From assembly GCA_043821285.1 (NCBI GenBank), contig JBDRCZ010000053.1, positions 1 to 36,614 on the forward strand: DNA of 36,614 nucleotides, in the 5' to 3' direction. The translations under genes and the position numbers were made by a program. This document shows positions 10,579 through 35,441 of this stretch, in pieces. Under the pieces are notes generated by a model. It saw only the letters and a list, made by a program, of their open reading frames with translations, was not told the origin of the DNA and did not search any database. The stretch comes from Candidatus Omnitrophota bacterium. GTDB lineage: Bacteria; Omnitrophota; Gorgyraeia; B26-G9; JBDRCZ01. Numbering within the stretch: the stretch's first letter is position 1; each line of letters opens with the position of its first letter.

Positions 10579-11382
10579 TTATTTTTGCGCAGTAAAAATA
10601 ACCTCAAAAACTATATTCTTAACCCAGCCCACCTTTTTATCTAAGCGTTCAACTTTGCTCCAGTCGTTATTACGTACCAATACCCGCACTTTCATTCCCT
10701 CCTCAAGAGTAAAATGCGTAGTTGCCCGGTCAAACGGCTCAAATTTCGCATCTGCCTTTTTGGAAATAATGATTGCTTCTTTCCCTAAGACAGAAATCCT
10801 CCTCTCTAGGAAAACCGCACTCAAGACAGAAAAAACGATTAAGATACTCAATAAAATTCTCGTATAGAGCCTGTGGGTTTTAAATACTATCCCCAAAATT
10901 ATAACCAGCACAAAAGCGACATAAATTAAGCATAAAAGAACCGTAATACCGTCAATTGTAAGCTGCGCATACAAATTATCCATAAACTGCAAAAGCCATG
11001 TTTTTTTCTCCTCTAAAGGGGGCACTTTAAGCAATGACCTTGCGTATTCATAATTTGACTGCAAATCCCGGTCCCTGGGGATTAACTGCTTTGCCCGTTC
11101 ATAATTTAAAATTGCCTGCCCCAGCACACCCTGTTTAAAATAACAATTACCCAAATTATAATACAGGCTGCCGCTTTCAAACCCCTTATCAAGTAAATTA
11201 CGATATGCGCTGGTTGCCTCAGCATATTTACCCTCTTCATAAAGTATATTTGCTTTATAAAACATGTATTCCGGGGTAAAAGCAGTATCTTCGGCAAACA
11301 AAACACCGGTATTTAGCAATAAGATACAAAACGCAAATATCAAAATTATCTTATGCATATTTTTGTCTTTCCAAGTAATCAA
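10579..11382 (-). CDS. BatE-like membrane protein (signal peptide, TPR, TM segments, C-terminal SH3-like region)
   Basis: It has a signal or anchor sequence. A TPR-like segment is present (YKANILYEEGKYAEATSAYRNLLDK…YYNLGNCYFKQG…). Central hydrophobic helices follow. Its position is last in the Bat-type gene order. Confidence 0.65.
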   Translation of the reverse strand: MITWKDKNMHKIILIFAFCILLLNTGVLFAEDTAFTPEYMFYKANILYEEGKYAEATSAYRNLLDKGFESGSLYYNLGNCYFKQGVLGQAILNYERAKQLIPRDRDLQSNYEYARSLLKVPPLEEKKTWLLQFMDNLYAQLTIDGITVLLCLIYVAFVLVIILGIVFKTHRLYTRILLSILIVFSVLSAVFLERRISVLGKEAIIISKKADAKFEPFDRATTHFTLEEGMKVRVLVRNNDWSKVERLDKKVGWVKNIVFEVIFTAQK

Positions 11383-13249
11383 TAACCATCTTTATTCTTT
11401 TTAGCGTTTCCGACATATTATCTTTGTTCAGTTCAGAAGAAGAGTATCTTAATATATCACAATCCTGGAAAATTTCTTTTAATGCCTTAAGGATTTCCTC
11501 ATCTACGTTTTTTGGCCGGAGAACTTCGTCAACAATATCTATAGTTATCCCACCGGTTGAAATATGCAGTTTATTTCCTAAATATATTTGCAGGGTCTTA
11601 AATATCGTATGATAAAACTCTTCGGTTTTTCCTTCTTTTAGCAGCCGTTCTGCTTCTTTAATCCCTTGTCTTGCCTGTTTTGGTGCGCGCAGGCTGCGGG
11701 CATACCTTACATCCGTTCTTAATCGCTCACTTCGCCGATAAACGGTTAACACAGAAATCAGCAAAATTATCGGGATAAACTGCAGCATAAGAAATTTTTT
11801 ATTTTTATACAAATATGCTGCCTTCTTTCTCAGTCTCCGTGGGGCGGTTTTAATATAAATAATATCCCGGCCTAATGTTTCCGTTTTAAGTGGCGAAGAA
11901 ACCACATCTGGCGCCCCGATAATTTTCAGCTCTTCTTCTTTTTCCTGCGGTTTCACGGAGATTGCAAACGGGCCTTTTGTTATACTCTGATACTTTTCAC
12001 GATCCGGGTCAAAAAAACTAAAGGTAATTGCCGGTACCTCACAAACTTCCTCAGTCCGGGGCATAAGCACCTGCTCAAATATCTTTTTATTATCCTCTAC
12101 TTTTACCTGCGGTTCATACGTCTTAAATATATCTCCCAATTCAAGTTTGGGTAAATTTACTGTATTAAAATTACCTTTTCCGGAAACCGTCATCTTAAGC
12201 GTAATCGGGTCACCAACTTTTAGTTCACGTGGTCCGACCTGAACATCAAAATTAAAATTTCCTATTGCCCCGCTAAACCCTTCAGGTTTCCCTTGCTCTG
12301 GTAACGAAGCTATTGTAACGGGTATTTCTACGGATTTTAAATCCATGGGATATGTTTCATACCGGCCGAAAAAATCCTCAAAAATATCACTATCAAAAAA
12401 AGAAGACGGCCTTCTTTGCCTTTGCTTTCTTATGACCAGGCTGCATTTGAAGTGTGCCGGGCCAAGAACAAAATCCCCTGTCCTTATTCCAAAAATATAC
12501 GTCTTAAATTCAAAAACATTATAGAGTATCCCTCCTAAAACCTCCTGGTATTGCTTATATTTCTCAAACTCCCCAACCGAAAAACCCTCATGTTCAAACG
12601 TAGGATACTGATCAGATTCTACCTTCAAGTTGTTTACATATAATTTAATCGTCAAGGGAATAATCTCATTTAAATAAACCGGTTTCTTCCCTACCTCCAT
12701 TACCAGAAAAATCTTATCTTCCAATTGCATTGCTGATTCATCGGGTGACTGGCCGGGTATAGCCTGCGCAGCCGGTTTATCTAAAACCTCAACATTTACG
12801 GTTCCTGATTTATATGTTTGCCCTTTATAAGTAACTGAAAACGGTCCAATCGTAAACATCCCTTTTTCTACTGCCAATAATCCATAACTATACGTTATCG
12901 AACTTGTCACCTCTCCATTGACAATAGACATCATTGTCGAAGGTCCAAGATAACGCGATTCAAATCCGTTTATTTTTGGCAGATCAGGAGAAGAAACGTC
13001 CTGTGTCCCGTGAAAAGTAAGAGAAAGCTGCAAAGTTTTACCTAAGGCAACCTTAGTCCTATCCACGGCAACTTCAAAAGTTATATTTTTAGCAAAACAC
13101 GGCAGTGTCAAAACATTAAAAATCAACAGAAAAATCAGTACATTTTTGCCATTTTTGATTTGACTATTATTTTTTATTATTTTATTTTTTGATTTGTTTA
13201 CCATTTGGAATTCGTCATTTGCCTGTCCGCTAATCTTTTTGCGGAACAT
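11351..13249 (-). CDS. BatD-family protein (aerotolerance-operon type; C-terminal TM plus cytoplasmic tail)
   Basis: The BatD-type signature …ITFEVAVDRTKVALGKTLQLSLTFHGTQ…LPKINGFE…YLGPS…SIVNG… is present. A TM lies near the C-terminus (FLMLQFIPIILLISVLTVY). The tail carries the motif …FQDCDILRYSS…. Confidence 0.8.
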   Translation of the reverse strand: MFRKKISGQANDEFQMVNKSKNKIIKNNSQIKNGKNVLIFLLIFNVLTLPCFAKNITFEVAVDRTKVALGKTLQLSLTFHGTQDVSSPDLPKINGFESRYLGPSTMMSIVNGEVTSSITYSYGLLAVEKGMFTIGPFSVTYKGQTYKSGTVNVEVLDKPAAQAIPGQSPDESAMQLEDKIFLVMEVGKKPVYLNEIIPLTIKLYVNNLKVESDQYPTFEHEGFSVGEFEKYKQYQEVLGGILYNVFEFKTYIFGIRTGDFVLGPAHFKCSLVIRKQRQRRPSSFFDSDIFEDFFGRYETYPMDLKSVEIPVTIASLPEQGKPEGFSGAIGNFNFDVQVGPRELKVGDPITLKMTVSGKGNFNTVNLPKLELGDIFKTYEPQVKVEDNKKIFEQVLMPRTEEVCEVPAITFSFFDPDREKYQSITKGPFAISVKPQEKEEELKIIGAPDVVSSPLKTETLGRDIIYIKTAPRRLRKKAAYLYKNKKFLMLQFIPIILLISVLTVYRRSERLRTDVRYARSLRAPKQARQGIKEAERLLKEGKTEEFYHTIFKTLQIYLGNKLHISTGGITIDIVDEVLRPKNVDEEILKALKEIFQDCDILRYSSSELNKDNMSETLKRIKMVIDYLERQKYA

Positions 13250-13286
13250 TTGTCATTAAAAATTTTTGCTAAAAGGCAGAAATTTT

Positions 13287-14174
13287 TCACCAGTTTTTCT
13301 CAACCTCCGGAAAATACCCGCGTCCTCTTTCCTGTTTAATATTTCCAGTTGGTTCCTCCTGGCGATAACCTTCCAACAGCATCTTTGCTTCCTGTTCAGA
13401 CATCTCCTTTGCTGCCTCCTGAGCGTCTTCTGCCGGCTTAACTACTTTTACCTCTTCTCCTGTTTGTCCTTCCTCATCTTTTTCCTCTGCTGCCCCTGGT
13501 TCTCCTACTTTCTCTTCCGCATCCTTTTTCTCCTGATAAACCGGCTCTGCTTTCTTCTCCTCTCCTTGTTTTTCTTCATCACCAACCGTTTGTGTCTTTT
13601 CCTGTTCTGGAGCCAATTGTTCTCCCTGTTCTTGTTTTTCTTGTTCTTGCTGTCCTTTCCCCTTTCCCTTTCCTTGCTGTTGTTTTAATTTATCCAGTAA
13701 AACCTTCAACTTTTTCTCAACAAACTCGTGATTATATTTTGCATCTTCATCCTGCGGATCAAGCTCAATTGCCCGTTTATAATAATCGAGCGCTTCCCGG
13801 TAAAGATTAACTGCTCCGCTCAAATCCGTATTTTCCTTAAGTCTCGCCTGCTCGTACTTACAATTACCAATATTATAATTTGCCCGAGCCTCTAAATCTC
13901 TGTTTTCGGTTTTCAGGGCATCAGTAAACGCCTCAATCGTCTTATCATAATCACCCTTTTTATACCATGACGCCCCTTTATTAAAACTTATTATATCAGA
14001 ATCCGGCATTGCTATGCCAGCTTCATTATATTTCTTAAGCGCCTCGTCAAATTTTCCTGCATTATAAAGCCGATTCCCCGCATCTACCGCACCCTTACCA
14101 GAAGCAGCAGCACATATTGCGGCAGCAAAAAATAAAATTATACTATTTAAAAATAATACATTCCACACTTTCAT
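13287..14174 (-). CDS. BatC-like TPR protein with an E/K/Q-rich low-complexity tail
   Basis: A signal sequence is followed by TPR-like repeats (…YNAGKFDEALKKYNEA…YKKGDYDKTIEAF…NIGNCKYEQARL…YYKRAIELDP…). The acidic tail is low-complexity (…QQQGKGKGKGQQEQEKQEQGEQ…). Confidence 0.75.
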   Translation of the reverse strand: MKVWNVLFLNSIILFFAAAICAAASGKGAVDAGNRLYNAGKFDEALKKYNEAGIAMPDSDIISFNKGASWYKKGDYDKTIEAFTDALKTENRDLEARANYNIGNCKYEQARLKENTDLSGAVNLYREALDYYKRAIELDPQDEDAKYNHEFVEKKLKVLLDKLKQQQGKGKGKGQQEQEKQEQGEQLAPEQEKTQTVGDEEKQGEEKKAEPVYQEKKDAEEKVGEPGAAEEKDEEGQTGEEVKVVKPAEDAQEAAKEMSEQEAKMLLEGYRQEEPTGNIKQERGRGYFPEVEKNW

Positions 14175-14206
14175 TTCATGACCTATCTTTTATTGTTTAA
14201 CCTCTC

Positions 14207-14288
14207 TTTTAACCACTAATTACACTAATTGTCACGAATCGTTAATTCTTTTTTCATTCGTGTAAATCTGTGTTATTCGTGGTTAAAA
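14207..14288. repeat. Imperfect palindromic intergenic element (about 82 bp), the clearest copy of the CACGAAT-heptamer family
   Basis: The left arm is ttttaaccactaattacactaattgtcacgaatcg. The loop is ttaattcttttt. The right arm is tcattcgtgtaaatctgtgttattcgtggttaaaa. The arms are reverse complements apart from a few mismatches. Confidence 0.8.
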
Positions 14289-14397
14289 TATTATATTAAT
14301 CTTTTGAATATAACACCTGAACTTATCAACCCGAACCGACACCGTTATATGACGGATTGGGGCTGGTGAAATAATTTGTTAGGCATTTATTATTTCT

Positions 14398-15336
14398 TTA
14401 TTTCCATAAAGATTCTTGTGTCCAATCATTTATACTTTTACTATGTTGATCCCAATATTTATATACAACATTTATATTTTTCGAATCCACCCATTGTTTG
14501 TTGAGGTTTTCTAAGTGATCAAATTGTGGGGTTGGAAGAGGAAAATAAGAGCCTTCAAATAGTAATGATCCATATATAAAAGAAGCAGTTTGGTAAATTG
14601 CTTTCCAACAATTTTCTAAGCGGTCAATAGAAATACCTTTTTGAGTTTTAGTTAAGCTTTTTCGAGTAGATGGAGCTGCTCCGTGGGCTATAAATTTATC
14701 TACATATTTTTTTGTATCTTTGCAAATATTTAATTTCTTTTCGAGATATCGAAACCAGGTTTTATTAATTAAATCGGTACGTTTTCTTCTGGTAGATTTA
14801 ACGTTAGATAATTTGTCAAAATTTTCATGTGCTAGTTCTGATGTTGGCCATGCTTTAGGTCCCTTTGAGGCTATCCAACCAGTTCTTAATGATTTAGATT
14901 TAGGAGTTGAGTCATAGGGTAAGCCATCATATGCAACATAGTTTTCTCTTGTTAAAAGATGCCTGTGTTTTTCTATATCAGAAGTTATGCTTTGCAAAGA
15001 AATTACGGCACGCTTAGGGTTAGGGTTCGAGGGGGGTTTTTCAATTAATCTTCGAATTGCAGTTGATTGAGTTGTTGCAAAGCCAATGTAAAATAAACGA
15101 AGTACAGAAGAGTTAAAAGCAACGTTGACTATGGGCTGTTCCATGGCCAATTTCCTTAAGTCATCAATAGTACGAAATAATACAAAATACCAAACATTCC
15201 AACTAATTTGATTCCAAATAGAGTTGGCGTCTTTTCCAATAAACCATTTAATCCATTGGCGCCTTTTTTTTCTAAATTCTTTCGTACTTCCCTTATCGGC
15301 AATATCACATTTTTTTAGTCTATATTTGTAACCCAT
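14398..15336 (-). CDS. Hypothetical protein of unrecognised family, encoded by an AT-rich gene inserted between BatC and BatB
   Basis: A clean 312-aa ORF is present. It has no TM segment or signal peptide and no motif I could assign. It is flanked on both sides by copies of the CACGAAT palindromic elements. Confidence 0.55.
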   Translation of the reverse strand: MGYKYRLKKCDIADKGSTKEFRKKRRQWIKWFIGKDANSIWNQISWNVWYFVLFRTIDDLRKLAMEQPIVNVAFNSSVLRLFYIGFATTQSTAIRRLIEKPPSNPNPKRAVISLQSITSDIEKHRHLLTRENYVAYDGLPYDSTPKSKSLRTGWIASKGPKAWPTSELAHENFDKLSNVKSTRRKRTDLINKTWFRYLEKKLNICKDTKKYVDKFIAHGAAPSTRKSLTKTQKGISIDRLENCWKAIYQTASFIYGSLLFEGSYFPLPTPQFDHLENLNKQWVDSKNINVVYKYWDQHSKSINDWTQESLWK

Positions 15337-15433: not shown

Positions 15434-15620
15434 TTTTAACCACCAATTGCACGAATTATCACGAATAATTTTTATTCTCACACGGAGTCGCAGAGTTCAC
15501 AGAGTTTTTTATCTTTTAACCACGAAAGTTACGAAATACACAAAAAAAATGCTTTTATTAAATGATTTTCTCATCCTCAACGTATTTTTAACTATTTCGT
15601 GCCTTTCGTGGTGAATAAAA
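15434..15620. repeat. Cluster of CACGAAT-family arms (two left arms and one right-arm-like segment)
   Basis: The segments are ttttaaccaccaattgcacgaattatcacgaataat (15434-15470), ttttaaccacgaaagttacgaaatacac (15515-15545) and ctatttcgtgcctttcgtggtgaat (about 15595-15620). Confidence 0.6.
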
Positions 15621-15688
15621 ATTTTTCATTTTTTTCTCAGTGCCTCTGTGTCTCCGTGTGATTATCTGTTTTTTTTATTTATAAACAA

Positions 15689-16687
15689 TTATTTTCTCCG
15701 CGGAACTATAATGGGGCAAATCAACAACAAAACAAACGCCACAAAGAGTGGTATCTGAAACCGCTCTTCATACTGCTTTCGCATCTTACTTTCCAACTCT
15801 CGCTTTTCCATTTTAGCGAGTTTTTGTTCATAAATCAAATCCAACCCGAATTCCGCGCCTCTGGCGCGCACATAACTGCCGCCGGTATTTAAGGCAATCT
15901 TTTGTAATGTAACCTCATCCAAACGCGTCTTAACCACATTACCCTGTTTATCCTTAAGAAACGATTTATTTCCGCTTTCATCGGTTATCGGAATAAGCTC
16001 TCCTTCATTAGTCCCGATACCGATACAAAATATTTTTATCTCCTCTTTTTTCGCCTCTTCCGCTGCTTTAACCGGGTCGCCCGCATGATCTTCGCCGTCA
16101 GTAATCAGCACGAGAATTTTATATTTCTTCTGCCCGCCCTCATAACTTTTAACTGCCTCTCTTATTGCGCTGGAAATTGAAGTACCTCCTTTAGGGATTA
16201 TCTCCGTATTAAGATTATCCAAAGAAAGCAAAAACCCGTTATAATCTACGGTTAACGGACACTGCAAAAACGCACTACCTGAAAAGGCAATCAAGCCAAT
16301 TCTATCCCCTTTTAGTTTTTTTAGCAAATCCAGCACCGCCATTTTTGAACGCTTTAGCCGATTCGGCTTCACATCTTCCGCAAGCATACTCCGGGAAGTA
16401 TCAATTGCAATCAAAATATCCAACCCGCTTCTTTTCACCTCTTCCCAATGAAACCCCCACTGCGGCCGCATTAAGGCCAGACAACAAAAAACAAGCGCTA
16501 AAAAAGTAAGAATTATTTTTAACCTTTCCTTCTTTCGGTTCAAAGAAACCAACAATTCATTCAGCAGTTCTTTATCGGCAAAGCGTTCCAAAAGTCTTTG
16601 CTTTTTTCTAACCGCCCATAAATAAAAAACTGCTAACGCAAAAACCAGCCACAACATATACACCGCATTTATATTAGCAAATCTCAT
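15689..16687 (-). CDS. BatB-like vWA-domain membrane protein
   Basis: Two N-terminal TM segments are present. The vWA MIDAS motif is …LIAIDTSRSMLAEDVKPNRL…. Further vWA blocks are …IGLIAFSGSAF…LTVD… and …ILVLITDGEDH…. Confidence 0.85.
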   Translation of the reverse strand: MRFANINAVYMLWLVFALAVFYLWAVRKKQRLLERFADKELLNELLVSLNRKKERLKIILTFLALVFCCLALMRPQWGFHWEEVKRSGLDILIAIDTSRSMLAEDVKPNRLKRSKMAVLDLLKKLKGDRIGLIAFSGSAFLQCPLTVDYNGFLLSLDNLNTEIIPKGGTSISSAIREAVKSYEGGQKKYKILVLITDGEDHAGDPVKAAEEAKKEEIKIFCIGIGTNEGELIPITDESGNKSFLKDKQGNVVKTRLDEVTLQKIALNTGGSYVRARGAEFGLDLIYEQKLAKMEKRELESKMRKQYEERFQIPLFVAFVLLLICPIIVPRRK

Positions 16688-16821
16688 ATCACACCTAATC
16701 TAAACATTTGTGGTTTTCTGTTTTTTTAACCACCGAGAACACAAAGTCCACAGAGAAATTTTATAAGTAACCTTTGCATTCTATATTTTAATACTTTTAC
16801 ATTGTTTTATATCTACTACAC

Positions 16822-16905
16822 TTTCACCACTAATTACACGAATTGTCACGAATAAAATAAATATACCCTATTCGTGTAACTCTGTGTTATCCGTGGTTTA
16901 AAAAT
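16822..16905. repeat. Palindromic CACGAAT element copy
   Basis: The sequence is ccactaattacacgaattgtcacgaataaaataaatataccctattcgtgtaactctgtgttatccgtggtttaaaa. It has the same architecture as the 14207-14288 copy. Confidence 0.75.
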
Positions 16906-17212
16906 ATCTTTTAGTCTTATCTTTTTTATCCGCAGCTCTATTTTATTTTTTAGCTACGCTACACGGATAAAACACGGATTTTTTAATAATAAAATCTTAA
17001 ACTATTTTCTGACAAGATGAACACGATTTACAAGATTTTTAAATATATTTATTTTTATCCTTTTATCCTGTTTACCTCGTTAGAAAATGCCAACTTACCC
17101 TATTAAAAAAATAAACCCTTCCAACATGATTATTACAAAACGTTTTTACTGACAATGTTATCTTTATTATTTTCTAACGGGGTTTATCGTGTTAATCTTG
17201 TCTATGTTTTTT

Positions 17213-17303
17213 TTCATTCGTGTCAATTGGTGTTATTCGTGGTTAAAACGTTTTTAGTTTCGTCTTTTCTTATCCGTGTTCAATTCGTGTCTATCCGTGG
17301 TTC
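17213..17303. repeat. CACGAAT-family right arm plus the TCCGTGTTCAATYCGTG variant
   Basis: The sequence ttttcattcgtgtcaattggtgttattcgtggttaaaa is followed by tatccgtgttcaattcgtgtctatccgtggttctg. Confidence 0.65.
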
Positions 17304-17328
17304 TGTAATTGCATTTCGCGTTGTCAAT

Positions 17329-18324
17329 TCAGGGTATTCTTCTCAGCACCGTATTACCCAACACAATCTCTAAACATATCAAAACCACCGCCGGAATCAA
17401 AAACAAATAAAACAACTCTTTATACTCCATATACCCTTTTTCTTCAATCGGAGTTTTTTCCAGCTTATCGATTGTTTTATAAATCTCGCGCAAAGACTGC
17501 GTATCCGTTGCTCTAAAATACTGCGCATTAGTTTTCGCGGCAATTTTGATTAAACTATCTTCGTCGATATCTATTTCAACAGACTGATATACAGTATTTC
17601 CAAAAAAATCTCTTGCCGGATAAGGCACCAGGCCTTTACTTCCTGCACCAATAGTATAAACCTTCACCTTTAGTGCCTGCGCGGCCTCAGCCGCGGTAAA
17701 CGGCGAGACCTTACCGGAATTATTCCTGCCGTCAGTAAGTAAAATTACCACCTTACCTTTGGCTTTTGTATCTTTCAGCCGGTCCAAAGACGACATTATC
17801 CCTGAGCCAACCGCGGTACCATCTTCGACCATACCGATTTTTACCCTTTCTAAATTCTGCAGCAGCCAGCCATAGTCTAAGGTAAGCGGGCAAACCGTAT
17901 AGGCACGGGAGCCAAAGACCACCAGTCCAATACGGTCATACTGCCGGCCGTTTATAAAATCAGTAACTACGTCTTTAACAACCTCCAGCCGGTTTTGCCG
18001 CTTATTCCCCAGTTTAAAATCCTCCGCCAGCATACTTGTAGACACATCAACTGCGAGCACAATGTCAATCCCCTCGGTTATAATCCTGGTTTCTTCCAAT
18101 GCCGACTGCGGACGAGCTAAGGCAATTACAATCAACAAAAGGGCGGCGATGCGTAAAAATATAATATTTTTACTTAATCTTACCTTAAAAGACGGTTTAA
18201 GCCCCTGCAGCAACTCACCCGAAGAAAAAATCACTGCCGGTTCTCTTTTTCTACGTTTCTGATAATATCCCGCAGCTAATACCAGCAGCAATAATATTAA
18301 AATCCAGGGATCATTAAAATGCAT
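17329..18324 (-). CDS. BatA-like vWA-domain membrane protein
   Basis: TM segments lie at the N- and C-termini. The vWA MIDAS motif is …VLAVDVSTSMLAEDFKLGNKRQNRL…. Further vWA blocks are …IGLVVFGSRAYTVCPLTLD… and …VVILLTDGRNN…. Confidence 0.85.
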   Translation of the reverse strand: MHFNDPWILILLLLVLAAGYYQKRRKREPAVIFSSGELLQGLKPSFKVRLSKNIIFLRIAALLLIVIALARPQSALEETRIITEGIDIVLAVDVSTSMLAEDFKLGNKRQNRLEVVKDVVTDFINGRQYDRIGLVVFGSRAYTVCPLTLDYGWLLQNLERVKIGMVEDGTAVGSGIMSSLDRLKDTKAKGKVVILLTDGRNNSGKVSPFTAAEAAQALKVKVYTIGAGSKGLVPYPARDFFGNTVYQSVEIDIDEDSLIKIAAKTNAQYFRATDTQSLREIYKTIDKLEKTPIEEKGYMEYKELFYLFLIPAVVLICLEIVLGNTVLRRIP

Positions 18325-18514
18325 TATAAATAATCCTTTGTTGGTTTTGTCAAAAACTACCGATATTTAATAAACATCCATAGGTTACAGGCAATCATAG
18401 ATGCCAAAGAGAAAAACGTTTGTTGGATACGGTTACGACTCTCCGCCAATTCCTTCATAAAGATTAGCTGATCTATGACTTTGTAATGAAAAATTATAAA
18501 TAAAAAAGTTCTCT

Positions 18515-20755: not shown

Positions 20756-21778
20756 TTAAAATATTACTTCCTTCGTCTGCTCGACAAACACCCTGGCGGA
20801 ATCATAACTCGCATCAATCTCTGTTTCGGTTGGCCCATACTCGGCGAACTTTACCAAATCACAATGAGAAAGAAACGTTCTTAAGAGCCCCTTTTGTTCT
20901 ATTGAGAGCGTATTAGCATCTTTCACCTTTATTAAAAACTCCTCAGTGGTCATCTCTGGGGCGCGCAGCTCAAAGCGGTTTTCCAGGTAATGCCTAATAA
21001 TATCCGAAAGCCGCTGATGGTACTCTTTAATCCGGCCTTGCGGGACAAGTTGTTCTTGTCTGAGAATTTCCAAGTCTCGATAAGCTATTTCGTGCGCTGG
21101 CGGCGGAGGGATAATCTCATTTTTTTTCTTTTTCCTGGCCAAATAAATAACCAGCCCGGAGATAATCACAAGCACCAGCAAACCACCTATCAGATAAGAT
21201 GATATTTTTCGCGGAAAACGAACCGGGCCTTTAATATCGCGAATTTCCGCGGCATTCTTTGCCTTTTCCAAGACACTCTTAACCTCTATTTCTACCTCAT
21301 CTGTTTCAATCTCCTGCCATTCATCCCTGCCTTTTAATTTATACTTTACTACGGTTTTAGGGATTGTATACTTACCACTGGTATACGTATCTAAAACATA
21401 CCACTGTTGATAAGTAATTTTCCTAAAAAACTTTTTCTCAGAAGAACCAAAATCACGAATAGCAAAACCCGCAAGATTATCGGCAAATTTCGGCAGTTCA
21501 ACTTCTACACTATCTTTTGCCTGGACAACAATGGTATATTTTATCTTATCCCCGATAAAAACCGCATTTTTATCAACCCTGGCCTCAACCTGAACAATAC
21601 TCTGTTTCTTACCTACCTTCACATCCTGATTAGCGGCAAAAACAGGAGTAAAAAAAAGGAGTAAAAAAAGACATATTTTTATCACAGTTTTAATTAGGTC
21701 TATCTTCATATTGTCTGCTTCTTTGATAAACGACAGCCTTTGTCGTTCATCGTTATAAGTAATTATTTTTCCCGCCAA
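20756..21778 (-). CDS. Membrane protein with a signal peptide, an extracytoplasmic domain, a single TM and a cytoplasmic tail. It resembles the tail region of BatD.
   Basis: A signal peptide (ICLFLLLFFTPVFAA) is followed by a mid-protein TM (YLIGGLLVLVIISGLVIYLA) and a polybasic stretch. A poly-Pro linker comes next. The tail motif …FLSHCDLVKFAEYGP… resembles the BatD tail …FQDCDILRYSS…. Confidence 0.55.
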   Translation of the reverse strand: MAGKIITYNDERQRLSFIKEADNMKIDLIKTVIKICLFLLLFFTPVFAANQDVKVGKKQSIVQVEARVDKNAVFIGDKIKYTIVVQAKDSVEVELPKFADNLAGFAIRDFGSSEKKFFRKITYQQWYVLDTYTSGKYTIPKTVVKYKLKGRDEWQEIETDEVEIEVKSVLEKAKNAAEIRDIKGPVRFPRKISSYLIGGLLVLVIISGLVIYLARKKKKNEIIPPPPAHEIAYRDLEILRQEQLVPQGRIKEYHQRLSDIIRHYLENRFELRAPEMTTEEFLIKVKDANTLSIEQKGLLRTFLSHCDLVKFAEYGPTETEIDASYDSARVFVEQTKEVIF

Positions 21779-21876
21779 GACGCAAAGTTCGCAAAGATTT
21801 TTTAACTACAGATGATCGCCGATAAAAAAATACCGGTGATCACAGATTGTAAAACAACATTTAAGCATTTTTTTAG

Positions 21877-21972
21877 CCACGGATTCACACGGATAAACGA
21901 CAGACTTTTTAATAATCAATTTGTTTAACCTCATTTTTTATCAGTGTTCAATCCGTGAAAATCTGTGGTTTT
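21877..21972. repeat. CACGGAT-variant palindromic element
   Basis: The left part is ccacggattcacacggataaac. The right part is cagtgttcaatccgtgaaaatctgtgg, an inverted arrangement of the same heptamers. Confidence 0.65.
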
Positions 21973-22325
21973 GTCTTTTCTTTTACTTTGCAACACGTTG
22001 CATCATTTCTTGTAACCCAGATAAGAAAGAATCTATTTTCTAACAACAAATAGCACAAATATAAAATCTGATTTTATAATTTATTCATGTAAGAAGACCC
22101 AGCATTATTCGTTATTTTATCTTATTACAAATTAATGCGCAAGAAAAAATTTGGTAGGTGTGTATTTCTCCCTTGGAATTTTAATGCATATTCAGGACAC
22201 AATGTACATTAAAAAAGGAACTAAATGGCTGTTTGTATTTCTTCACCAGCCTTATGTAATTCTCCGATGGTGGGGGTTACTGGCTGTATAGTGCACTAAA
22301 GCAGGGTCTATATATTGTTTAACAG

Positions 22326-23552
22326 CTATCTGTGGAGCGTTTCTTCGGGTAACTGTGTTATAAACCGCGTTTTTTCTTTCTTCAATATATCTTGTTGAAC
22401 TGTCTCCTCTGCTCCTTTAAGTTTTTGTATGAAAACATCGATACTATTTGCACTATATGAGATTAATGCCCAATAGGAAGTGATTATCAAAAGGTCTCCT
22501 TTGGCAGAAAAAGAAATAGTATTAAATATATCTGTTTCTTTCACATGAGATAAAACATTCCGCAAAGACTCATCATGGACATTCATAGCAACCGCATAAG
22601 TAGCAATTATCCATTGTTGCTTGAGCTCTTCCGGAATAATATCTCCGAGAACTCTTTTGTAGTACTGTATCACTTTTTTAAGTGACTCATCATGGCCATT
22701 CATAGCAACCTCATAAGTAGCAATTACTAATTGTTTTTTTAGCCTAAAATCAAGTCCTTCTTTTTGCATTCCAAGTGCTTTCAGGTAAATCTTTATCGTC
22801 TCATAAGGAGTAGTGTTAGCTCTTACACAATAAAACGTGGCTATGGCAAGATTTGAACGCAATAACTTTTCTTCCTCATCACTTATATCAAGTTCTCTCA
22901 GATAACCTTCATATATATCTCTTAATTCACCAACCTTTGCTAAGACATACTTTGCTGTAATAATTTGCTTTATTCTTTCTAGAGTAAATCTGCCTTCTAT
23001 CCACCTCCAGTCATATTCCCTGCCGCCAAAGTTCCCATCTATAGGCAAATTATATTTCTCAATCTCTCCTTTATCAGTATATCGTAATGACAATCTTACT
23101 TCATATTCCAACACTAATACCCCGATTAGCCCTTTCTTTGGCTCAATATCAGGATATATCCTTATCTTTATGTCGCCTTCGCATATTTCTCCTGCATATA
23201 CAAGACCGTTTATAAGTGCATGAGCATAGTTCCGTTTTTTCGTTTCTTTGTATTCACGCTCCCAGAATTTCATGAATCTTTTATAACTTGCAGCTTCTGT
23301 TGCAATATCCCCTTCACGTGGAGACGAAACATCTGTTATTAGCTGCTCTGGCATGCGTCCTTGCGTATACAATTTAAATAATTCTTGGACTTCAGGGGTA
23401 TCTGTTTCTACGGCTGGGGCAAGATGGTTGTGCAGGCCTTTTAAACTACCTCCGGCTGCCCAAGAAATATCCATACATAGAAAGGCGTTAATTAATATAA
23501 TTGCAATTATTTTAAATAAAATTTTGGTTTTCATGTTCCACATAATTAACAC
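22326..23552 (-). CDS. Hypothetical secreted or anchored protein with internal tandem repeats of about 38 aa
   Basis: The N-terminal hydrophobic leader is …KIIAIILINAFLCMDISWAAGGSLKGLHNHLAPAV…. The repeats are LKKQLVIATYEVAMNGHDESLKKVIQYY / LKQQWIIATYAVAMNVHDESLRNVLSHV. No family was recognised. Confidence 0.6.
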   Translation of the reverse strand: MLIMWNMKTKILFKIIAIILINAFLCMDISWAAGGSLKGLHNHLAPAVETDTPEVQELFKLYTQGRMPEQLITDVSSPREGDIATEAASYKRFMKFWEREYKETKKRNYAHALINGLVYAGEICEGDIKIRIYPDIEPKKGLIGVLVLEYEVRLSLRYTDKGEIEKYNLPIDGNFGGREYDWRWIEGRFTLERIKQIITAKYVLAKVGELRDIYEGYLRELDISDEEEKLLRSNLAIATFYCVRANTTPYETIKIYLKALGMQKEGLDFRLKKQLVIATYEVAMNGHDESLKKVIQYYKRVLGDIIPEELKQQWIIATYAVAMNVHDESLRNVLSHVKETDIFNTISFSAKGDLLIITSYWALISYSANSIDVFIQKLKGAEETVQQDILKKEKTRFITQLPEETLHR

Positions 23553-23849
23553 CTACGACCAACATAATGATAAATATCCCGCCACAAAGATTGGCGGACA
23601 GGCAAATTCCAAAATCCCCGCCACACCGCATCAGTGGGCAGGCCCTCCACAAAACATCGGCGGGCAGGCAATGAATCTCTAAATAATTCAATCAAAGAAT
23701 CAAAAGGCAAAATGACAATTGAAAATTAAAATATTTTTTTTAACTTTTTCAGTTTTTCTTCGCGGCCTTCGTGGTAAAATTTTATTTTCGTGTGTTTCGT
23801 TTGTTTTTTCTGTAAATAGTAAACACAAAAGTTGACCACGTCAACTTTT

Positions 23850-25463
23850 TTAGATTGCCTGTTCTACCCCTTCTAATTTATTCACCTGCATAGAACCAAG
23901 TCTTTCTGTTAAAGATAAAACACCATGTAAGATATGTGATAGAATTGTGCGTGATAAACTATTTTTTTCTATAGGGCGGCCCATTGCTTGCAACAAACAT
24001 CGAGGGCCACCTTTTAGGCACCCGGCAACAATCGACTCAATCGGGAAAATTTGTTCAAAACCTAAATCTCGATATATCTGAGCTACAAATTGGTCTAACT
24101 GTGGTATTTCATATTGCGGTATAATAATAGACCGCTTTATTTTCCCATTCCCCGTATCTGGATAACAATCCATCACTACATTTGTATAATACAGCCCAAA
24201 TGGATTATCGGCAAAATCAATTGGCAAAGCAGGAACCCGGCGGACAGTAATTCCTTCTGCCTCTAAACTTTCCCTCACTCTTTCTAATTCCTGAACATAC
24301 TCAGATTGTTTAGCCTTTTCAATTTCTTCAGGTGTTACATCTAAAAATCCACGTAGTTGCTCGCGGGTAATATTAATAAAAGAACTCGACGCTATATTTT
24401 CAATTACTATCTCTTTTTCTTCTGGAGTGAGTGCAGCAATAATTTCCAGTGCCTTTATAGGATCAGCCAAAAGACTAGTATGCTCCCCATATTTTGTCTT
24501 ACCAATAGGTACGTGATATCGGTCATTATGTATATCAGGGCAGTCTAAAACAATAACTTGCCTTCCTGTTACTGCCTCGATTTTTCTAATAGCTTCCTCT
24601 TCTGTTAGAACCTTTTGACTTGCTATATTATAACAAGAATAATGTACTGTCTGTTTACCTACATACACATACGAACCATCAGCAGTAACATCCCCACCTT
24701 GCATGTCTAATGTCTTATCACTAAAATTATTGTCTACGATTGCATCCCAAGCATCTGTATTCATAATCTGCATGCCTACAGATCTATCAAGCCCTGTCCC
24801 TGCATCGCCCTTTATTGGAACTACAGAATATTGTTTGGTCTTTTGATTTACTAATACAATATATGGGTCTCTTGCCCACGATGAAGAAAATCCTCCCTTC
24901 ATAATAATAAAACGTAACCTCTGCTCTAAATTCTTTATATTTTTTCTTCGAAGTCCTCCCAGTGTTAGAGAAGCGCTGAGTTCAGAATTTGTAACCACTA
25001 TAAGTTTTACATCATCTCTTAATACCTCGGCCAACCTTCCTGCCATAATCGCTCCCATCTCATCCCCAACTTGAAATATAGCTGCTTCCATCATGCTATT
25101 AGAATCAGATACAATTTTAAATTCTGTAAGGTTACTTATCTTATGCGGATTTGTAGGATTGGCAATAAGTTCTGGTGGCACCTTTGGAATGGCAGTCTCT
25201 ATCTTTGACCTCGCCCTATCCAAAAATTCCAAAAGTTTCTTTTTATCAGCAAGCTCCGTTGCTACGTGTGGCACTATGCCGATACCCGCAGCCAACAGGA
25301 ACAGAAAACTTCTCCGTGAGATACAGCCGGTTGTTCGATGCTCCTTCAGTATACTCAACACCTCCCGGTATAGTCTCTCCAGAAAACTTTGAATTCCCTC
25401 AAGTAGTCCCCCCGTGACATTTTTGGCAACGGTAGGCTTGAGATCGGGCCCGGCAACACTCAT
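23850..25463 (-). CDS. Agmatine deiminase / peptidyl-arginine deiminase (PAD_porph-type) family enzyme with a Tat-type signal
   Basis: A twin-arginine motif GCISRRSFLFLLAAGIGIV lies about 45 aa from the annotated start, so the start codon is probably further downstream. A WARDPY block (the agmatine-deiminase WxRD motif) is present. The C-terminal catalytic Cys context is …KGGPRCLLQAM…. Confidence 0.65.
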   Translation of the reverse strand: MSVAGPDLKPTVAKNVTGGLLEGIQSFLERLYREVLSILKEHRTTGCISRRSFLFLLAAGIGIVPHVATELADKKKLLEFLDRARSKIETAIPKVPPELIANPTNPHKISNLTEFKIVSDSNSMMEAAIFQVGDEMGAIMAGRLAEVLRDDVKLIVVTNSELSASLTLGGLRRKNIKNLEQRLRFIIMKGGFSSSWARDPYIVLVNQKTKQYSVVPIKGDAGTGLDRSVGMQIMNTDAWDAIVDNNFSDKTLDMQGGDVTADGSYVYVGKQTVHYSCYNIASQKVLTEEEAIRKIEAVTGRQVIVLDCPDIHNDRYHVPIGKTKYGEHTSLLADPIKALEIIAALTPEEKEIVIENIASSSFINITREQLRGFLDVTPEEIEKAKQSEYVQELERVRESLEAEGITVRRVPALPIDFADNPFGLYYTNVVMDCYPDTGNGKIKRSIIIPQYEIPQLDQFVAQIYRDLGFEQIFPIESIVAGCLKGGPRCLLQAMGRPIEKNSLSRTILSHILHGVLSLTERLGSMQVNKLEGVEQAI

Positions 25464-25663
25464 CTCCGCATCCCCCGCTTCCCCATATAACCTGTAAAAT
25501 TTTCTATATTTTCAGTATTATCTAACCTTATGGCTGGGGCAAGGTGGGTATGGAGAGATTTAAGGCTGCCTACCGCGGCCCAGGCAATGTCCAAGCAGAG
25601 AAAGGCATTCACTAATATTATGGCGGTCAATCTGAACCAAATTGTACGTGTCAAATTATTCAT
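25460..25663 (-). CDS. Small ORF encoding a copy of the N-terminal leader module of the 408-aa protein, possibly a remnant
   Basis: The product (67 aa) reads …TAIILVNAFLCLDIAWAAVGSLKSLHTHLAPAI…. This is about 70% identical to residues about 15-47 of the protein encoded at 22326..23552. Its stop overlaps the deiminase start (ATGA). Confidence 0.4.
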   Translation of the reverse strand: MNNLTRTIWFRLTAIILVNAFLCLDIAWAAVGSLKSLHTHLAPAIRLDNTENIENFTGYMGKRGMRR

Positions 25664-26152
25664 ATGTTATGTCCAATGTTTTTTGAGTTTCTAATTGACC
25701 TAATTGCTCTAATCTACTAGAAACTCAAAACCACAATTAAAATTTAGAGGTTTTTTTATTCTATTTTACCTTTTTACTTTTGACTTGTACCTTTAATTCA
25801 TTCGTGAAGATTTGTGTAATTCGTGGTTGAAAAATAAAAAATATAACTACTTTTCGACAAGATTTACCTCATAAGAAAACTTCACTTGACACTGTTTTCT
25901 TATACTTGGTCTATTTTCTTTAGCTTTGTTTTAAATATATTGCCAATAATTTTAAAATCTATTTAAAAAACTATTTTTAAAAGTATACCATATATTTCGG
26001 ATTTTTCAAGGGTTTGGCAAAATTTTTTTGGTAAAAGGTGTAAAAGGTTAGCTCTTATCTGAACGGCTAATTTCCTCATTCAGATTTTAGATCGTTTAAA
26101 GCCTGCGGAAATTTTTTCGTTCTTTTTTGATGGGAAATAAAATAAGACAAAA

Positions 26153-26232
26153 CCACGGATAAATACAGATTGGACACGAATAAAAAATGAGATCAAATCA
26201 TTAGCCTTTTAAAATCCGTGTTAATCCGTGGC
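26153..26232. repeat. CACGGAT/CACGAAT-variant palindromic element
   Basis: The sequence is ccacggataaatacagattggacacgaataaaa … aaaatccgtgttaatccgtggc. Confidence 0.6.
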
Positions 26233-26247
26233 TATATTCTCTTTTAA

Positions 26248-27294
26248 TTACTTTTCTGCCTGATCCACAGCTGCATCCGATTCTTTCGCAGGATTTTTAA
26301 CATCACTTTTTGGCAGCTGATAAAAAATCTCAACAATCTGCTCTTCCAGTGCCTTTTCCAGCAAAGACTGAGTAAGTGCCTGCTGTTTCTTCTGCCGGTA
26401 TTCATATTCCACCTGATTTTTTACCTCGTTAAACTCTTTTTGACGCTTTGTGGTTTTACCATCGTCTCCTTTAACCTCTTCGACATATTTATCTTTATTA
26501 GCATTATAATAAAGCTTGAGGTCATCCGGGGTAATTTTTAATTCCTTTTCGATTTCCTGTTTCAGCAGCTGCTCAACCGCAAACTGTTTTTTAACCTGCT
26601 CAAAAAACTCTCGCGCCGCAGTATTATTATCCAGTCCAAGGCGTTTTGCTTTTAAATACAACACCTCACTAGCCACATATTGCTTAATAAAATCATATCT
26701 TGCGCCCTCAGTCTCATAATTTTTCCTCAGCCACTCCGGCATCCGGTCCATGGCATTATTTATATCCGTCTCGGTAATCTCCTCATCACCGACCTTAGCA
26801 ATAATATTTCCCATTTTCTCTTCCGGTTTTTCTAAGGCAGTACGGGTTTTAAGTTCATACTGCGCCTGCGTAGTCATACCGGCCTTCTCCAGTGCCGCAA
26901 TAACCTTCTGATTTAACTCGGCAATAAAACCAGCATTTTTATCCAACATCTCCGCGCGAAAGTAATAACTCAAGGCCTTTTCATACTCATATAACTCCAG
27001 ATACAAATTACCGAGCAAATAAGCCGTCTTGGCTAATTCTTTTCTCTCTTTTCTCCCCGCTGCCGTTAAATAATCCTCCAGCGCCTGGGCCGCTTGTTTT
27101 TTTAGGCCTTTGACCATAAGCTGATTAGCATATTCAAGCTGGTCTTCGACTGACCAGTTTCCCGGTTGTCCAACCGGCAGAGAAATCCTGCCCGGAACCT
27201 GTAAAACTAAAACCGCCAAAACTACGATACCGATAACAATTATCATATTTAACACGGGGATTTTTTTCATCATCTCAGCGCAATCTCCTTTCAC
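26248..27294 (-). CDS. Membrane-anchored protein with TPR-like and SurA-N/PpiD-like chaperone-type regions
   Basis: An N-terminal TM (IIVIGIVVLAVLVLQV) is present. TPR-like helices follow (…AYLLGNLYLELYEYEKALSYYFRA…). The segment …ITPDDLKLYYNANKDKYVEE… is typical of SurA N-terminal-like domains. The gene overlaps the DUF58 gene by 20 nt. Confidence 0.6.
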   Translation of the reverse strand: MKGDCAEMMKKIPVLNMIIVIGIVVLAVLVLQVPGRISLPVGQPGNWSVEDQLEYANQLMVKGLKKQAAQALEDYLTAAGRKERKELAKTAYLLGNLYLELYEYEKALSYYFRAEMLDKNAGFIAELNQKVIAALEKAGMTTQAQYELKTRTALEKPEEKMGNIIAKVGDEEITETDINNAMDRMPEWLRKNYETEGARYDFIKQYVASEVLYLKAKRLGLDNNTAAREFFEQVKKQFAVEQLLKQEIEKELKITPDDLKLYYNANKDKYVEEVKGDDGKTTKRQKEFNEVKNQVEYEYRQKKQQALTQSLLEKALEEQIVEIFYQLPKSDVKNPAKESDAAVDQAEK

Positions 27295-28153
27295 GCATCT
27301 TAAAAAACTTCACCAATGCCTGGCTATAAGTTTTATCCGTACGCATATCAATATTATCCACATTTATCGAACGCAGTAACCGCTCTCTTTCTTTAAAACT
27401 TTGCATAGACTTACGGCTAAACTCAGCTCTTAAGGCCGCATCAGCAGTATCCAGCAAATAACCCTCTCCGGTTTCTGCATCTTCTAATTTAATCATCCCG
27501 ATATTTGGCAGCTCGAGCTCCCGCGGGTCAGTAATCGTTATTGCGACAATATCATGCCTTTTATTGGCAACGGACAATGCCTTTTTAAAATCCTTGGCAA
27601 AAAAATCCGAAATAAGGAAAGTCACGGTTTTACGTTTTGTTACCTTATTCAAATATTCCAAAGCCACTGGTATATCCGTACCAATGCCATCGGCCTTAAA
27701 ATAGAGCATTTCCCGGATAATCCTTAAGATATGGCGCAGTCCCTTACGCGGGGGAACAAATTTTTCTATGCGATCGGTAAAAATTATCAGTCCCACCTTA
27801 TCATTATTATGCCCTGCAGAAAACGCCAAAACCGAAGAAAGCTCAGCCGCCAACTGCTGCTTCAGCCGGTTAACCGTACCAAAGCGGCACGACCGCGACA
27901 TATCCAGCATGAGCATAACTGTTAGCTCTCTTTCCTCCATAAACTTTTTAATATAGGGGTGTCCCATACGCGCAGTAACATTCCAGTCTATGGAACGGAT
28001 CTCATCCCCTGGCTGATATTCTCGCACCTCTTCAAACTCCATACCTTTACCTTTAAAAACGCTATGGTACTGTCCGGCAAACACATCCGTAACCATACGG
28101 GAGGTAGTAATCTGAATCCGCCGTATATTTTTTAAAACTTCTTTGGGAATCAT
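27275..28153 (-). CDS. DUF58 protein, the usual partner of MoxR
   Basis: The signature …EEVREYQPGDEIRSIDWNVTARMGHPYIKKF…LMLDMSRSC… is present. Confidence 0.85.
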   Translation of the reverse strand: MIPKEVLKNIRRIQITTSRMVTDVFAGQYHSVFKGKGMEFEEVREYQPGDEIRSIDWNVTARMGHPYIKKFMEERELTVMLMLDMSRSCRFGTVNRLKQQLAAELSSVLAFSAGHNNDKVGLIIFTDRIEKFVPPRKGLRHILRIIREMLYFKADGIGTDIPVALEYLNKVTKRKTVTFLISDFFAKDFKKALSVANKRHDIVAITITDPRELELPNIGMIKLEDAETGEGYLLDTADAALRAEFSRKSMQSFKERERLLRSINVDNIDMRTDKTYSQALVKFFKMRERRLR

Positions 28154-28258
28154 ATATACCTATACTCTCCTATTATCTTCCTTTGAAAATTTCTAATTGC
28201 TTCAACCTGAGCGAGCCAGAACCAAACACAATCACGCCACTTTTGGCTCGTTCAGGTT

Positions 28259-28299
28259 GTTATATAAAAACCTACGGTTTTCAAGCTTTCCCTTTTATT
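28259..28299 (-). promoter_or_regulatory. Conserved 41-bp promoter/operator box upstream of the DUF58 gene, containing the palindrome AAAACCTACGGTTTT
   Basis: The plus-strand sequence is gttatataaaaacctacggttttcaagctttcccttttatt. It is identical to the box at 29446-29486 at 40 of 41 positions. In the minus sense it reads TTGAAAACCGTAGGTTTTTATATAAC. A 16-bp stem-loop (28203-28259) lies between the box and the ribosome-binding site. Confidence 0.5.
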
Positions 28300-28387
28300 T
28301 TTTTTCTGTGATTCAGTAAACGTAACGTTACGACATACAATATACAATATACGACATACAACTGTCTTCATCTGCGATCATCTGCGT

Positions 28388-29383
28388 TTAGGGAACTTCT
28401 ATCTCCTCAAAAATCCGTTTAATTATATCTTCGGAAGTTTTTTCCTCTGCCTCCGCTTCATAACTTACAATCACCCGATGGCGCAGCACATCCGGTCCGA
28501 TAGATTTCACATCCTGCGGAGTAACATAACCTCGTCCCTGAATAAACGCATAGGCCCGCGCCGCCACGGTCAAATAAATACTTGCCCGGGGCGAGGCACC
28601 ATACTGAATAAGCCCGGAGAGGTCATTTAATTTATATTTTTCCGGGGCACGGGTAGCAAAAACAATATTTAAAATATACTGTTCAACCTTTTCATCCATA
28701 TACACCTCATCAACCACCGCTCTGGCTCTGATAATATCTTCCGGTGCAACCACGGGATTTACCGCAATCTTTTTATCCGTAAAACTCATCATCTTCAAAA
28801 TCTTATGCTCCTCCTGCATACTGGGATAGGTTAAATTTATCTTGAGCATAAACCGGTCCACCTGTGCTTCCGGCAAGGGATAAGTACCTTCTTGCTCGAT
28901 AGGGTTTTGCGTCGCCATAACCAAAAACGGCTCATCGAGTTTAAAAGTATTCTCTCCGATCGTAATCTGTCTTTCCTGCATTGCTTCCAGCAATGCACTC
29001 TGCACCTTAGCTGGCGCGCGGTTTATCTCATCGGCCAAAATAATATTGGCAAATATCGGTCCTTTTTTCGTCGTAAAAGTTCCCTCTTTAGGATTATAAA
29101 TCAATGTCCCGATAATATCCGCGGGCAGCAAATCCGGGGTAAACTGCAATCTTTGGAATTTAGTTTTAACTGTTTGCGCAAGCGTTTTAATCGAGAGCGT
29201 TTTCGCCAGTCCCGGCACCCCTTCGACCAAAATATGGCCATTGGCCAAAAGCCCGATTAACAGCCTTTCAACCAAATAATCCTGTCCCACAATCACCTTC
29301 CTAATCTCAGCCAGCACTGCCTGCACAAACCCACTTTCATTCTTAATCTTCTCATTTATTGCAGTTATCCCTTTTCCAATCAT
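28388..29383 (-). CDS. moxR: MoxR-family AAA+ ATPase
   Basis: The Walker A motif is …ILVEGVPGLAKTLSIKTLAQ…. The signature …FQRLQFTPDLLPADIIGT… and Walker B …IILADEINRAP… are present. Confidence 0.9.
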   Translation of the reverse strand: MIGKGITAINEKIKNESGFVQAVLAEIRKVIVGQDYLVERLLIGLLANGHILVEGVPGLAKTLSIKTLAQTVKTKFQRLQFTPDLLPADIIGTLIYNPKEGTFTTKKGPIFANIILADEINRAPAKVQSALLEAMQERQITIGENTFKLDEPFLVMATQNPIEQEGTYPLPEAQVDRFMLKINLTYPSMQEEHKILKMMSFTDKKIAVNPVVAPEDIIRARAVVDEVYMDEKVEQYILNIVFATRAPEKYKLNDLSGLIQYGASPRASIYLTVAARAYAFIQGRGYVTPQDVKSIGPDVLRHRVIVSYEAEAEEKTSEDIIKRIFEEIEVP

Positions 29384-35436: not shown

Positions 35437-35441
35437 TTTTA

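Follow-up and report, generated by a model that had tools for sequence, protein, structure and literature searches.

The window analyzed here, a complete NCBI contig of 36,614 bp from a metagenome-assembled Candidatus Omnitrophota genome, contains a cluster of MoxR/Bat genes between positions 10579 and 29383. Every sizeable open reading frame (ORF) of this region is on the minus strand, where the order is MoxR, DUF58, p348, p340, BatA, BatB, BatC, BatD and BatE, all nine of them full length. Gene identities were assigned through profile matches to Pfam and NCBIfam. They agree with the initial annotation, according to which all the canonical parts of a Bat locus were present in the expected order and on one strand: a MoxR-class AAA+ ATPase is followed by a DUF58 protein, and two VWA proteins with the BatA N-terminal domain are followed by BatC, BatD and BatE. 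The homology searches, which were named at that stage as a possible refutation, gave matches to Bat models for the flanking VWA and TPR genes. The nine genes are the following, starting from MoxR (GC3 is the GC content at third codon positions).

28388-29383, minus strand: MoxR AAA+ ATPase, first gene of the operon, native (AAA_3 4e-66, AAA_lid_2 2e-22; 77-85% identity to relatives)
27275-28153, minus strand: DUF58 (VWA-like), native (Pfam 5e-79; 61-79% identity to relatives; 20-nt overlap with p348)
26248-27294, minus strand: p348, TPR and SurA_N/PpiD-like periplasmic chaperone without the rotamase core, native (GC3 0.44)
20756-21778, minus strand: p340, LB_053-family/BatD-like single-pass membrane protein, native (BatD 5.9e-5, LB_053_fam 2e-10)
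17329-18324, minus strand: BatA, VWA with the N-terminal double-transmembrane BatA domain, native (59-76% identity to relatives)
15689-16687, minus strand: BatB, VWA with the BatA N-terminal domain, native (59-73% identity to relatives)
13287-14174, minus strand: BatC, TPR with an acidic tail, native (BatC_Lepto 9e-19)
11351-13249, minus strand: BatD, native (Pfam BatD 6e-31)
10579-11382, minus strand: BatE, TPR and SH3, native (32-nt overlap with BatD)

The top NCBIfam models for BatA and BatB were those of the Leptospira BatA and BatB, with scores under the strict cut-offs of these models. Two of the starts deserve a comment. For p340, the true one is likely the ATG at 21709. In the case of BatD, the first ~15-45 codons have no match in relatives, which align from residue 29-51 on, and the 5' end overlaps a 35-nt repeat (13207-13241, with a second copy at 23583-23617); BatD may therefore begin further downstream.

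We compared this cluster with 26 related loci, 22 of them from a scan of a genome collection (one genome per species), plus L025 to L028. The 22 loci have BatA proteins that are 59-68% identical over full-length matches and belong to Omnitrophota and to genomes labelled Nitrospirae or Planctomycetes. The nearest relatives on long contigs are L025/L026 (BatA 73%) and L027/L028 (BatA 74%). As far as the contigs reach, all of them have the order MoxR-DUF58-(p348)-p340-BatA-BatB-BatC-BatD-BatE, with genes that overlap or abut and gaps of no more than ~175 bp. In the 13 relatives with a complete MoxR-to-BatE block this spans 8.7-9.9 kb, compared with 18,805 bp in the window. The comparison shows that the ancestral state was a compact block of overlapping or abutting genes. 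It also upholds the proposal that a normally compact operon was invaded in this lineage only, since all 26 related loci are compact and essentially repeat-free; the interrupted layout is not shared even by the closest ones (BatA 73-74%).

Of the 22 genome-collection loci, 11 have p348 in this place, as do L025 to L028, whereas one subset of relatives has no such gene. The p348 of the window aligns over its full length, in the rotamase-less form that is also found in L025 (7863-8849). The Rotamase_2 (peptidyl-prolyl isomerase) domain is kept in L027 (917-2107), L004 and others, and ~80 residues of it have been cleanly lost in the p348 of the window and in L025. Every relative whose contig covers the place has p340 immediately ahead of BatA. 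Because relatives keep both p348 and p340 as part of the operon, they are native genes and not insertions, and the annotation must be corrected to make them parts of the Omnitrophota version of the Bat system. Thus two of the seven apparently foreign genes counted initially, the SurA-N-like p348 and the BatD-tail-like p340, do not stand. All nine native genes have the same closest relatives (L025 to L028), which indicates that they belong to one genome and argues against a chimeric contig.

Five of the eight junctions between native genes have been opened, and the inserted DNA (~9.3 kb) makes up half of the locus. Instead of the compact arrangement expected of a single transcript, these five junctions measure 234 to 4,469 bp. 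In relatives, the MoxR-DUF58 junction varies from about -1 to 174 bp and the BatA-BatB junction from about -5 to +82 bp (106 bp in L027). Among the unopened ones, DUF58-p348 and BatD-BatE overlap, and BatC-BatD has 37 bp, or ~80 bp if BatD uses its second ATG. The contents of the opened junctions are listed below.

28154-28387, minus strand: MoxR-DUF58 junction, 234 bp, with an array of two CGCAGAT, a short tandem repeat, a copy of a 43-nt module (28257-28299) and a hairpin (28203-28259, -25.8 kcal/mol)
21779-26247, minus strand: p348-p340 insertion, 4,469 bp, absent from all relatives; in order, hairpin element 26135-26249, solo heptamer array 25793-25832, p67, p537, small hairpin 23827-23849, p408 and hairpin element 21874-21982
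25460-25663, minus strand: p67, 67-aa leader fragment
23850-25463, minus strand: p537, deiminase-like (ABH952_06335)
22326-23552, minus strand: p408, leader-bearing secreted protein
18325-20755, minus strand: p340-BatA insertion, 2,431 bp, with a pRiA4_ORF3 gene and a decayed restriction-modification (RM) gene
19886-20461, minus strand: pRiA4_ORF3, intact (PRiA4_ORF3 4e-64)
18515-19568, minus strand: RM remnant, with an HsdR_N-type fragment (18912-19568), a frameshift and an N6-methylase fragment (18515-19024) that ends after the AdoMet motif
16688-17328, minus strand: BatA-BatB insertion, 641 bp, in which no listed ORF reaches 60 aa
14175-15688, minus strand: BatB-BatC insertion, 1,514 bp, with a nested palindrome (15478-15661), a solo arm (15435-15466), p312 and a hairpin (14207-14288)
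14398-15336, minus strand: p312, AbiU2/HEPN-like candidate of 312 aa (ABH952_06290)

Every inserted ORF is in the sense of the operon, and no native gene has been truncated. A composition check had been proposed and does set the two classes apart: GC3 is 0.24-0.35 in the inserted ORFs versus 0.35-0.47 in the native genes, and the GC skew is less negative across the stretches of p312 and p408. The strongest outlier in codon usage is p312. In the p348-p340 insertion, GC3 is 0.30-0.31 and the hairpins fold at -27 to -28 kcal/mol. The loci of the relatives contain no homologue of p67, p537, p408, pRiA4_ORF3, p312 or either RM fragment.

As to the cargo, p312 had been described as an orphan, but we found 122 homologues. 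The genes around the homologues of p312 and p537 are of toxin-antitoxin or defence type, and no homologue lies in a Bat operon. Those of p537 number only two, both apparently from Omnitrophota, and they adjoin AbiEii/GIY-YIG and RelB/YafQ genes. The description of p537 as a Tat-exported deiminase was not confirmed: its predicted export comes solely from an SRRSFLF motif at ORF residues 49-55, it has no Pfam match and none in sequence searches of the PDB, and one of the homologues (P0122) matches PAD_porph weakly (E 0.0016, below the cut-off). A conserved GGxRC motif is present as well. The AlphaFold2 model of p537, derived from an alignment of only three sequences, has a pLDDT of 44.5, too low for the model to be of use. 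The pRiA4b ORF-3 gene was correctly recognized, and so was the RM remnant, which consists of two partial, overlapping frames that match REase_I (model positions 6-206 of 807) and MTase_I (119-262 of 635). The N-terminal ~200 residues of the nuclease subunit and ~140 residues of the methylase are left, not the complete nuclease/translocase and methyltransferase frames of a type I or IIG system, and the fragments are a pseudogene remnant.

The leader sharing noted at first is also real. The leader of p408 is common to proteins of 67 to 3366 aa, and p67 is almost the same in pattern as the N terminus of a 2363-aa protein. In a library of 1.8 billion proteins, this N-terminal leader of ~60 residues (..IILINAFLCLDISWAAGG.LK.LHTHLAP..; window 23380-23552 and 25460-25663) was seen in proteins P0253 to P0273; giant proteins may carry it as a signal for secretion or sorting that is specific to the lineage.

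The other component of the inserted DNA is a family of repeats. They are imperfect palindromes, often nested, with arms of two or three heptamers (CACGGAT, CACGAAT, CACAGAG) spaced by ~10 nt and a (tt)aaCCAC head. We counted 26 heptamer arrays in the window (0.5 expected), compared with ~1 in ~290 kb of the loci of relatives, and seven matches to the strict three-heptamer pattern where none was expected. Repeats cover 9-51% of most spacers and 0.7% of the coding sequence. The spacers had been called repeat-laden, and most of them are, well beyond chance; the exceptions are the three spacers of the p340-BatA insertion, with zero dispersed repeats and a local 8/16-nt tandem repeat (20646-20707). 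Nor does each Bat gene have a repeat module of its own upstream, as had been claimed, for BatA has none and p348 and BatE overlap the genes upstream of them. The dispersed copies are short (~30-110 nt), with 73-94% mutual identity. Individual elements fold at -25 to -30 kcal/mol (z -3 to -7). When the richest spacers were compared with mononucleotide shuffles, their two strands folded alike, so these are DNA palindromes and not strand-specific RNA structures. The hairpins have no trailing T-runs. The palindromes stop 32-38 nt ahead of the start codons of BatC and BatB, with hairpin 14207-14288 lying 32 nt before BatC. In addition to those already listed, there are the following elements.

16961-17300, minus strand: composite nested palindrome in the BatA-BatB spacer (outer arms CCACGGAT.., inner arms GACAAGAT..)
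16826-16897: hairpin in the same spacer (-29.4 kcal/mol, z -6.7), with a half element at 16726-16756
10290-10540, minus strand: composite nested palindrome downstream of BatE (spacer z -3.1 to -3.6)
29407-29486, minus strand: module upstream of MoxR, formed by a 43-nt module (29444-29486) and a 13-bp hairpin (29407-29437, -20.8 kcal/mol, z -7.9)

The two composite palindromes are related (69% mean column identity, with the best match at the right-hand end), and the whole BatA-BatB spacer has a z of about -4 on both strands. The 43-nt module is not of the heptamer type; its second copy, upstream of DUF58 (28257-28299), is 97.7% identical and again adjoins a hairpin. The inverted repeats at 21874-21982 and 26139-26234 were considered as the ends of a composite transposon carrying p537 and p408, and were rejected since each is a complete palindromic element. 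No Rfam family matches any of the spacers; the single match, Parecho_CRE, is a chance one outside the locus. We also noted that the first ~15 nt past the BatA stop (ATTGACAA.., ATTGACAAcgcgaaatgc; window 17300-17328) resemble the start of the L027 spacer (ATTGACAAagcaagcattgc; ~4118-4150), and this may be a shared internal promoter-like motif, older than the repeat insertions.

The repeats are not specific to this locus. Heptamer repeats are found in intergenic regions of the window outside the Bat cluster (2823, 9593 and 29919), and the family extends to other metagenomes. In IMG/VR, 60 stretches (L029 to L088) contain a total of 72 matches to the three-heptamer pattern, and a much stricter AT-rich pattern gave matches in at least 120 stretches of JGI metagenomes (L095 to L214). 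Among the matches listed, the JGI contigs with arrays span 29-67% GC; the free positions of the pattern are strongly conserved (in the middle heptamer, G 86%, A 98% and T 96%; flank ttaa), and an array mostly has either GGAT or GAAT in every one of its heptamers, in step with how GC-rich the contig is. Arrays of the CGCAGAT, CACAGAG and CACGAAA types co-occur with those of CACGRAT. In contigs of up to 52% GC, 72 of the 77 arrays listed are intergenic and 44 of 57 are between co-directional genes. Their neighbours include a thiamine gene cluster and, as judged from sequence, portal, head and capsid genes of phage type. With respect to the flanking genes, 15 solo arrays are in sense and 10 in antisense orientation, with no clear strand bias; a role of solo arrays as 5' untranslated regions or promoters, considered since arrays abut ribosome-binding sites in viral contigs, is thus unsupported. 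Some adjacent arms are mutually non-complementary (L053, L065). Between arm pairs separated by 0.4-5 kb, among the matches listed, there was no transposase, and ordinary genes were enclosed. As for a REP-associated tyrosine transposase (RAYT) or another transposase as partner, we found no link in the array-bearing loci: the two RAYT-like genes there (L211, L212) are flanked by GTAG repeats and not by arrays. A BLAST search of the array consensus against the PLSDB plasmids and INPHARED phages gave no match, and neither a printed occurrence of the exact repeat strings, among 8 million full-text papers, nor a name for the family was found.

It is conceivable, if on balance doubtful, that the heptamer-array palindromes (tt-aa-CCACGRAT-N2-CACGRAT-N3-CACGRAT, solo or as inverted pairs) are an undescribed, extremely widespread intergenic element of uncultivated bacteria and phages, recognized by a conserved DNA-binding or recombination protein and creating sites for the insertion of accessory genes inside conserved operons. 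If so, the Bat locus would be such a gene-by-gene insertion process caught in progress.

Regarding transcription, six relatives (L004, L005, L009, L010, L013 and L022) have a TTGACA...TAATAATTTTATA..TATAAT block ~50-90 nt upstream of MoxR, which suggests that sigma-70-type promoters are in use in Omnitrophota-type relatives. This TTGACA-type block is absent from the region upstream of MoxR in the window. The premise that bat genes have to be co-transcribed is soft in itself, since in Leptospira biflexa the deletion of bat genes did not stop transcription of the genes that follow, and independent promoters were proposed (PMC3557215). As for a contribution to aerotolerance, the literature is equivocal, and even in Leptospira no role of Bat in oxidative stress had been demonstrated (PMC3557215).

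The extra 9.3 kb is made up of three kinds of DNA: accessory genes, gene debris (p67 and the RM fragments) and heptamer palindromes. We consider it likely that a native and still intact Bat/MoxR cluster has been invaded, in this lineage only, by selfish palindromes and genes of the flexible genome, and that only co-oriented, frame-sparing insertions have survived. The nine-gene cluster is genuine and probably still functional. The invasion of five of the eight junctions would have taken place after the split from all the sampled relatives. Palindromes similar to repetitive extragenic palindromic (REP) sequences or miniature inverted-repeat transposable elements (MITEs) would have colonized the junctions first, and the resulting non-coding DNA would have offered a permissive landing place, perhaps also a substrate for recombination, to accessory DNA. 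Tolerance would have been limited to insertions in the sense of the operon that left the frames and start regions of the Bat genes untouched. The cluster would most likely still be expressed, via read-through or internal promoters, with read-through across hairpins that have no U-tracts and might act as punctuation, like REP sequences or bacterial interspersed mosaic elements (BIMEs), rather than as terminators. Continued expression is plausible because such hairpins without U-tracts are found inside ordinary operons elsewhere and because of the transcription of bat genes in Leptospira biflexa; since these genes can be transcribed independently there (PMC3557215), internal promoters are plausible too.

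Several points weigh against this lineage-specific invasion. Neither profile searches of the window nor inspection of the flanks gave any transposase, integrase or target-site duplication, so the mechanism of insertion is one that we infer. The three spacers of the pRiA4/RM insertion are free of palindromes, and the repeats therefore cannot account for every insertion. The protein database search returned no BatA relative above 76% identity, and at such a distance the insertions can be neither ordered nor dated. Compared with shuffled sequences, the scans for sigma-70 promoters (67 versus 59 expected) and intrinsic terminators (22 versus 16) were not above chance. Finally, the contig comes from a metagenome-assembled genome.

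The latter point, together with the repeats at most insertion borders and the different composition of the inserted segments, could be taken to indicate an artefact of assembly or binning, that is, a chimeric contig joined at short repeats. However, repeats of ~30-110 nt that are 73-94% identical are poor substrates for mis-joining, the nine native genes are full length, in canonical order and orientation and with shared nearest relatives, and it is very unlikely that five independent chimeric joins would all keep the order and the frames. An artefact is thus highly improbable. We give no more credit to a capture of cassettes in which the palindromes would be attC-like sites, forming a cluster without integrase and with co-oriented ORF cassettes. 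The boxes of attC sites are R'' (RYYYAAC) and R' (GTTRRRY), and the imperfect hairpins bounded by TTTTAAC...GTTAAAA recall them; element lengths of 72-115 nt are also within the attC range, p312 is flanked by such elements and the cargo is all co-oriented. Still, the window has no integrase that we could find, the three-fold internal periodicity of 10 nt and the frequent solo arms are atypical for attC sites, some adjacent arms (L053, L065) do not pair, the pRiA4/RM insertion has no such sites, and in other loci the neighbours of the elements are ordinary housekeeping genes and structural genes of phages.

A functional re-wiring has more in its favour but seems unlikely to us. The inserted regulatory modules would have split Bat expression into independent units, and some of the cargo, for instance the secreted p537 and p408 that lie between the chaperone-like p348 and p340, would have been recruited as clients or partners of MoxR or the VWA proteins. 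The 43-nt module and its hairpin upstream of both MoxR and DUF58 point to a recent duplication, given their 97.7% identity, and the promoter of the relatives is missing; in addition, the start codons of BatC and BatB are preceded by palindromes at a distance of 32-38 nt, the cargo shares the orientation of the operon and solo arrays abut ribosome-binding sites in some viral contigs. However, the 43-nt module has no sigma-70 consensus by eye, the scans remained at chance level and the solo arrays have no clear strand bias (15 sense versus 10 antisense). Also against this reading are the cargo itself, of which no gene is found in any other Bat locus, and the toxin-antitoxin or defence-type neighbourhoods of the p537 and p312 homologues.

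With invasion as the preferred reading, the locus illustrates that a conserved multi-protein operon tolerates being split at most of its junctions by accessory genes and palindromes while all its components are kept. This bears on how strict the co-transcription of Bat/MoxR genes has to be and on where flexible-genome genes lodge in the small, streamlined-looking genomes of Omnitrophota. The locus is a variant of a known operon; as a lead, the repeat family has more novelty. CACGRAT heptamers in a phase of ~10 nt are abundant across metagenomes and, if a cognate protein exists, they would offer a new way into the genome plasticity of uncultivated lineages.

The rest of the contig has further features. 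Toxin-antitoxin/Abi modules are present across the whole contig and not in the Bat locus alone (AbiEii, MazE/ParE-like and also DUF4160). An AbiEii toxin (2967-3593) with its DUF6922 partner (3542-3844) and a MazE-like/ParE-like pair (4059-4606) are next to histidine kinases. A 276-bp tandem repeat (23-1003, 3.6 copies, 82% matches) overlaps a plus-strand ORF of 290 aa without a convincing Pfam match, perhaps a repetitive protein that is truncated at the edge of the contig. At the other end, in a stretch of ~2.3 kb with short ORFs, one of them the DUF4160 gene (35442-35711), two modules (67 nt, 88%; 85 nt, 91%) are each present twice, ~940-990 bp apart (34765-35912), as if a small module had been duplicated in tandem. 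The 1.1 kb upstream of MoxR (29384-30492) has only short ORFs and half a heptamer array (~29903-29933); by eye, a 67-aa ORF on the minus strand (29963-30166) resembles a fragment of a CBS-domain protein.

Compared with known systems, the cluster has the same gene set and order as the bat operon of Bacteroides fragilis and the MoxR-Bat clusters of Leptospira and Borrelia, including the LB_053-family protein ahead of BatA. It differs from them in the extra PpiD/SurA_N-like gene, shared with some Omnitrophota relatives, and in the 9.3 kb of insertions. The repeats are similar to the REP, BIME and REPIN elements inside the operons of enterobacteria and pseudomonads, which are also numerous short intergenic palindromes, often between co-directional genes, clustered, nested and with stable hairpins; the 26 arrays of the window and the intergenic position of 72 of 77 elsewhere fit this description of high-copy elements. 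However, REP-type elements have GTAG or CGTC tags (PMC3733652), and those of the window have three CACGRAT-type heptamers and a ttaaCCAC head instead, with neither such a tag nor a gene for the cognate RAYT (Y1) transposase in the window. They resemble MITEs in size (70-340 bp), inverted-repeat arms, lack of coding capacity and intergenic dispersal, with two related composite copies in the window, but there is no consistent target-site duplication, no transposase-bearing parent between arm pairs, and solo arms are frequent. Lastly, the cargo (a putative Abi-like HEPN gene, decayed RM and plasmid-family genes) and the surroundings rich in toxin-antitoxin/Abi modules are reminiscent of defence islands and flexible-genome hotspots, with the difference that here the cargo genes lie dispersed among the cistrons of a conserved operon, one at a time, and are not gathered in one island beside a tRNA gene or an integrase.

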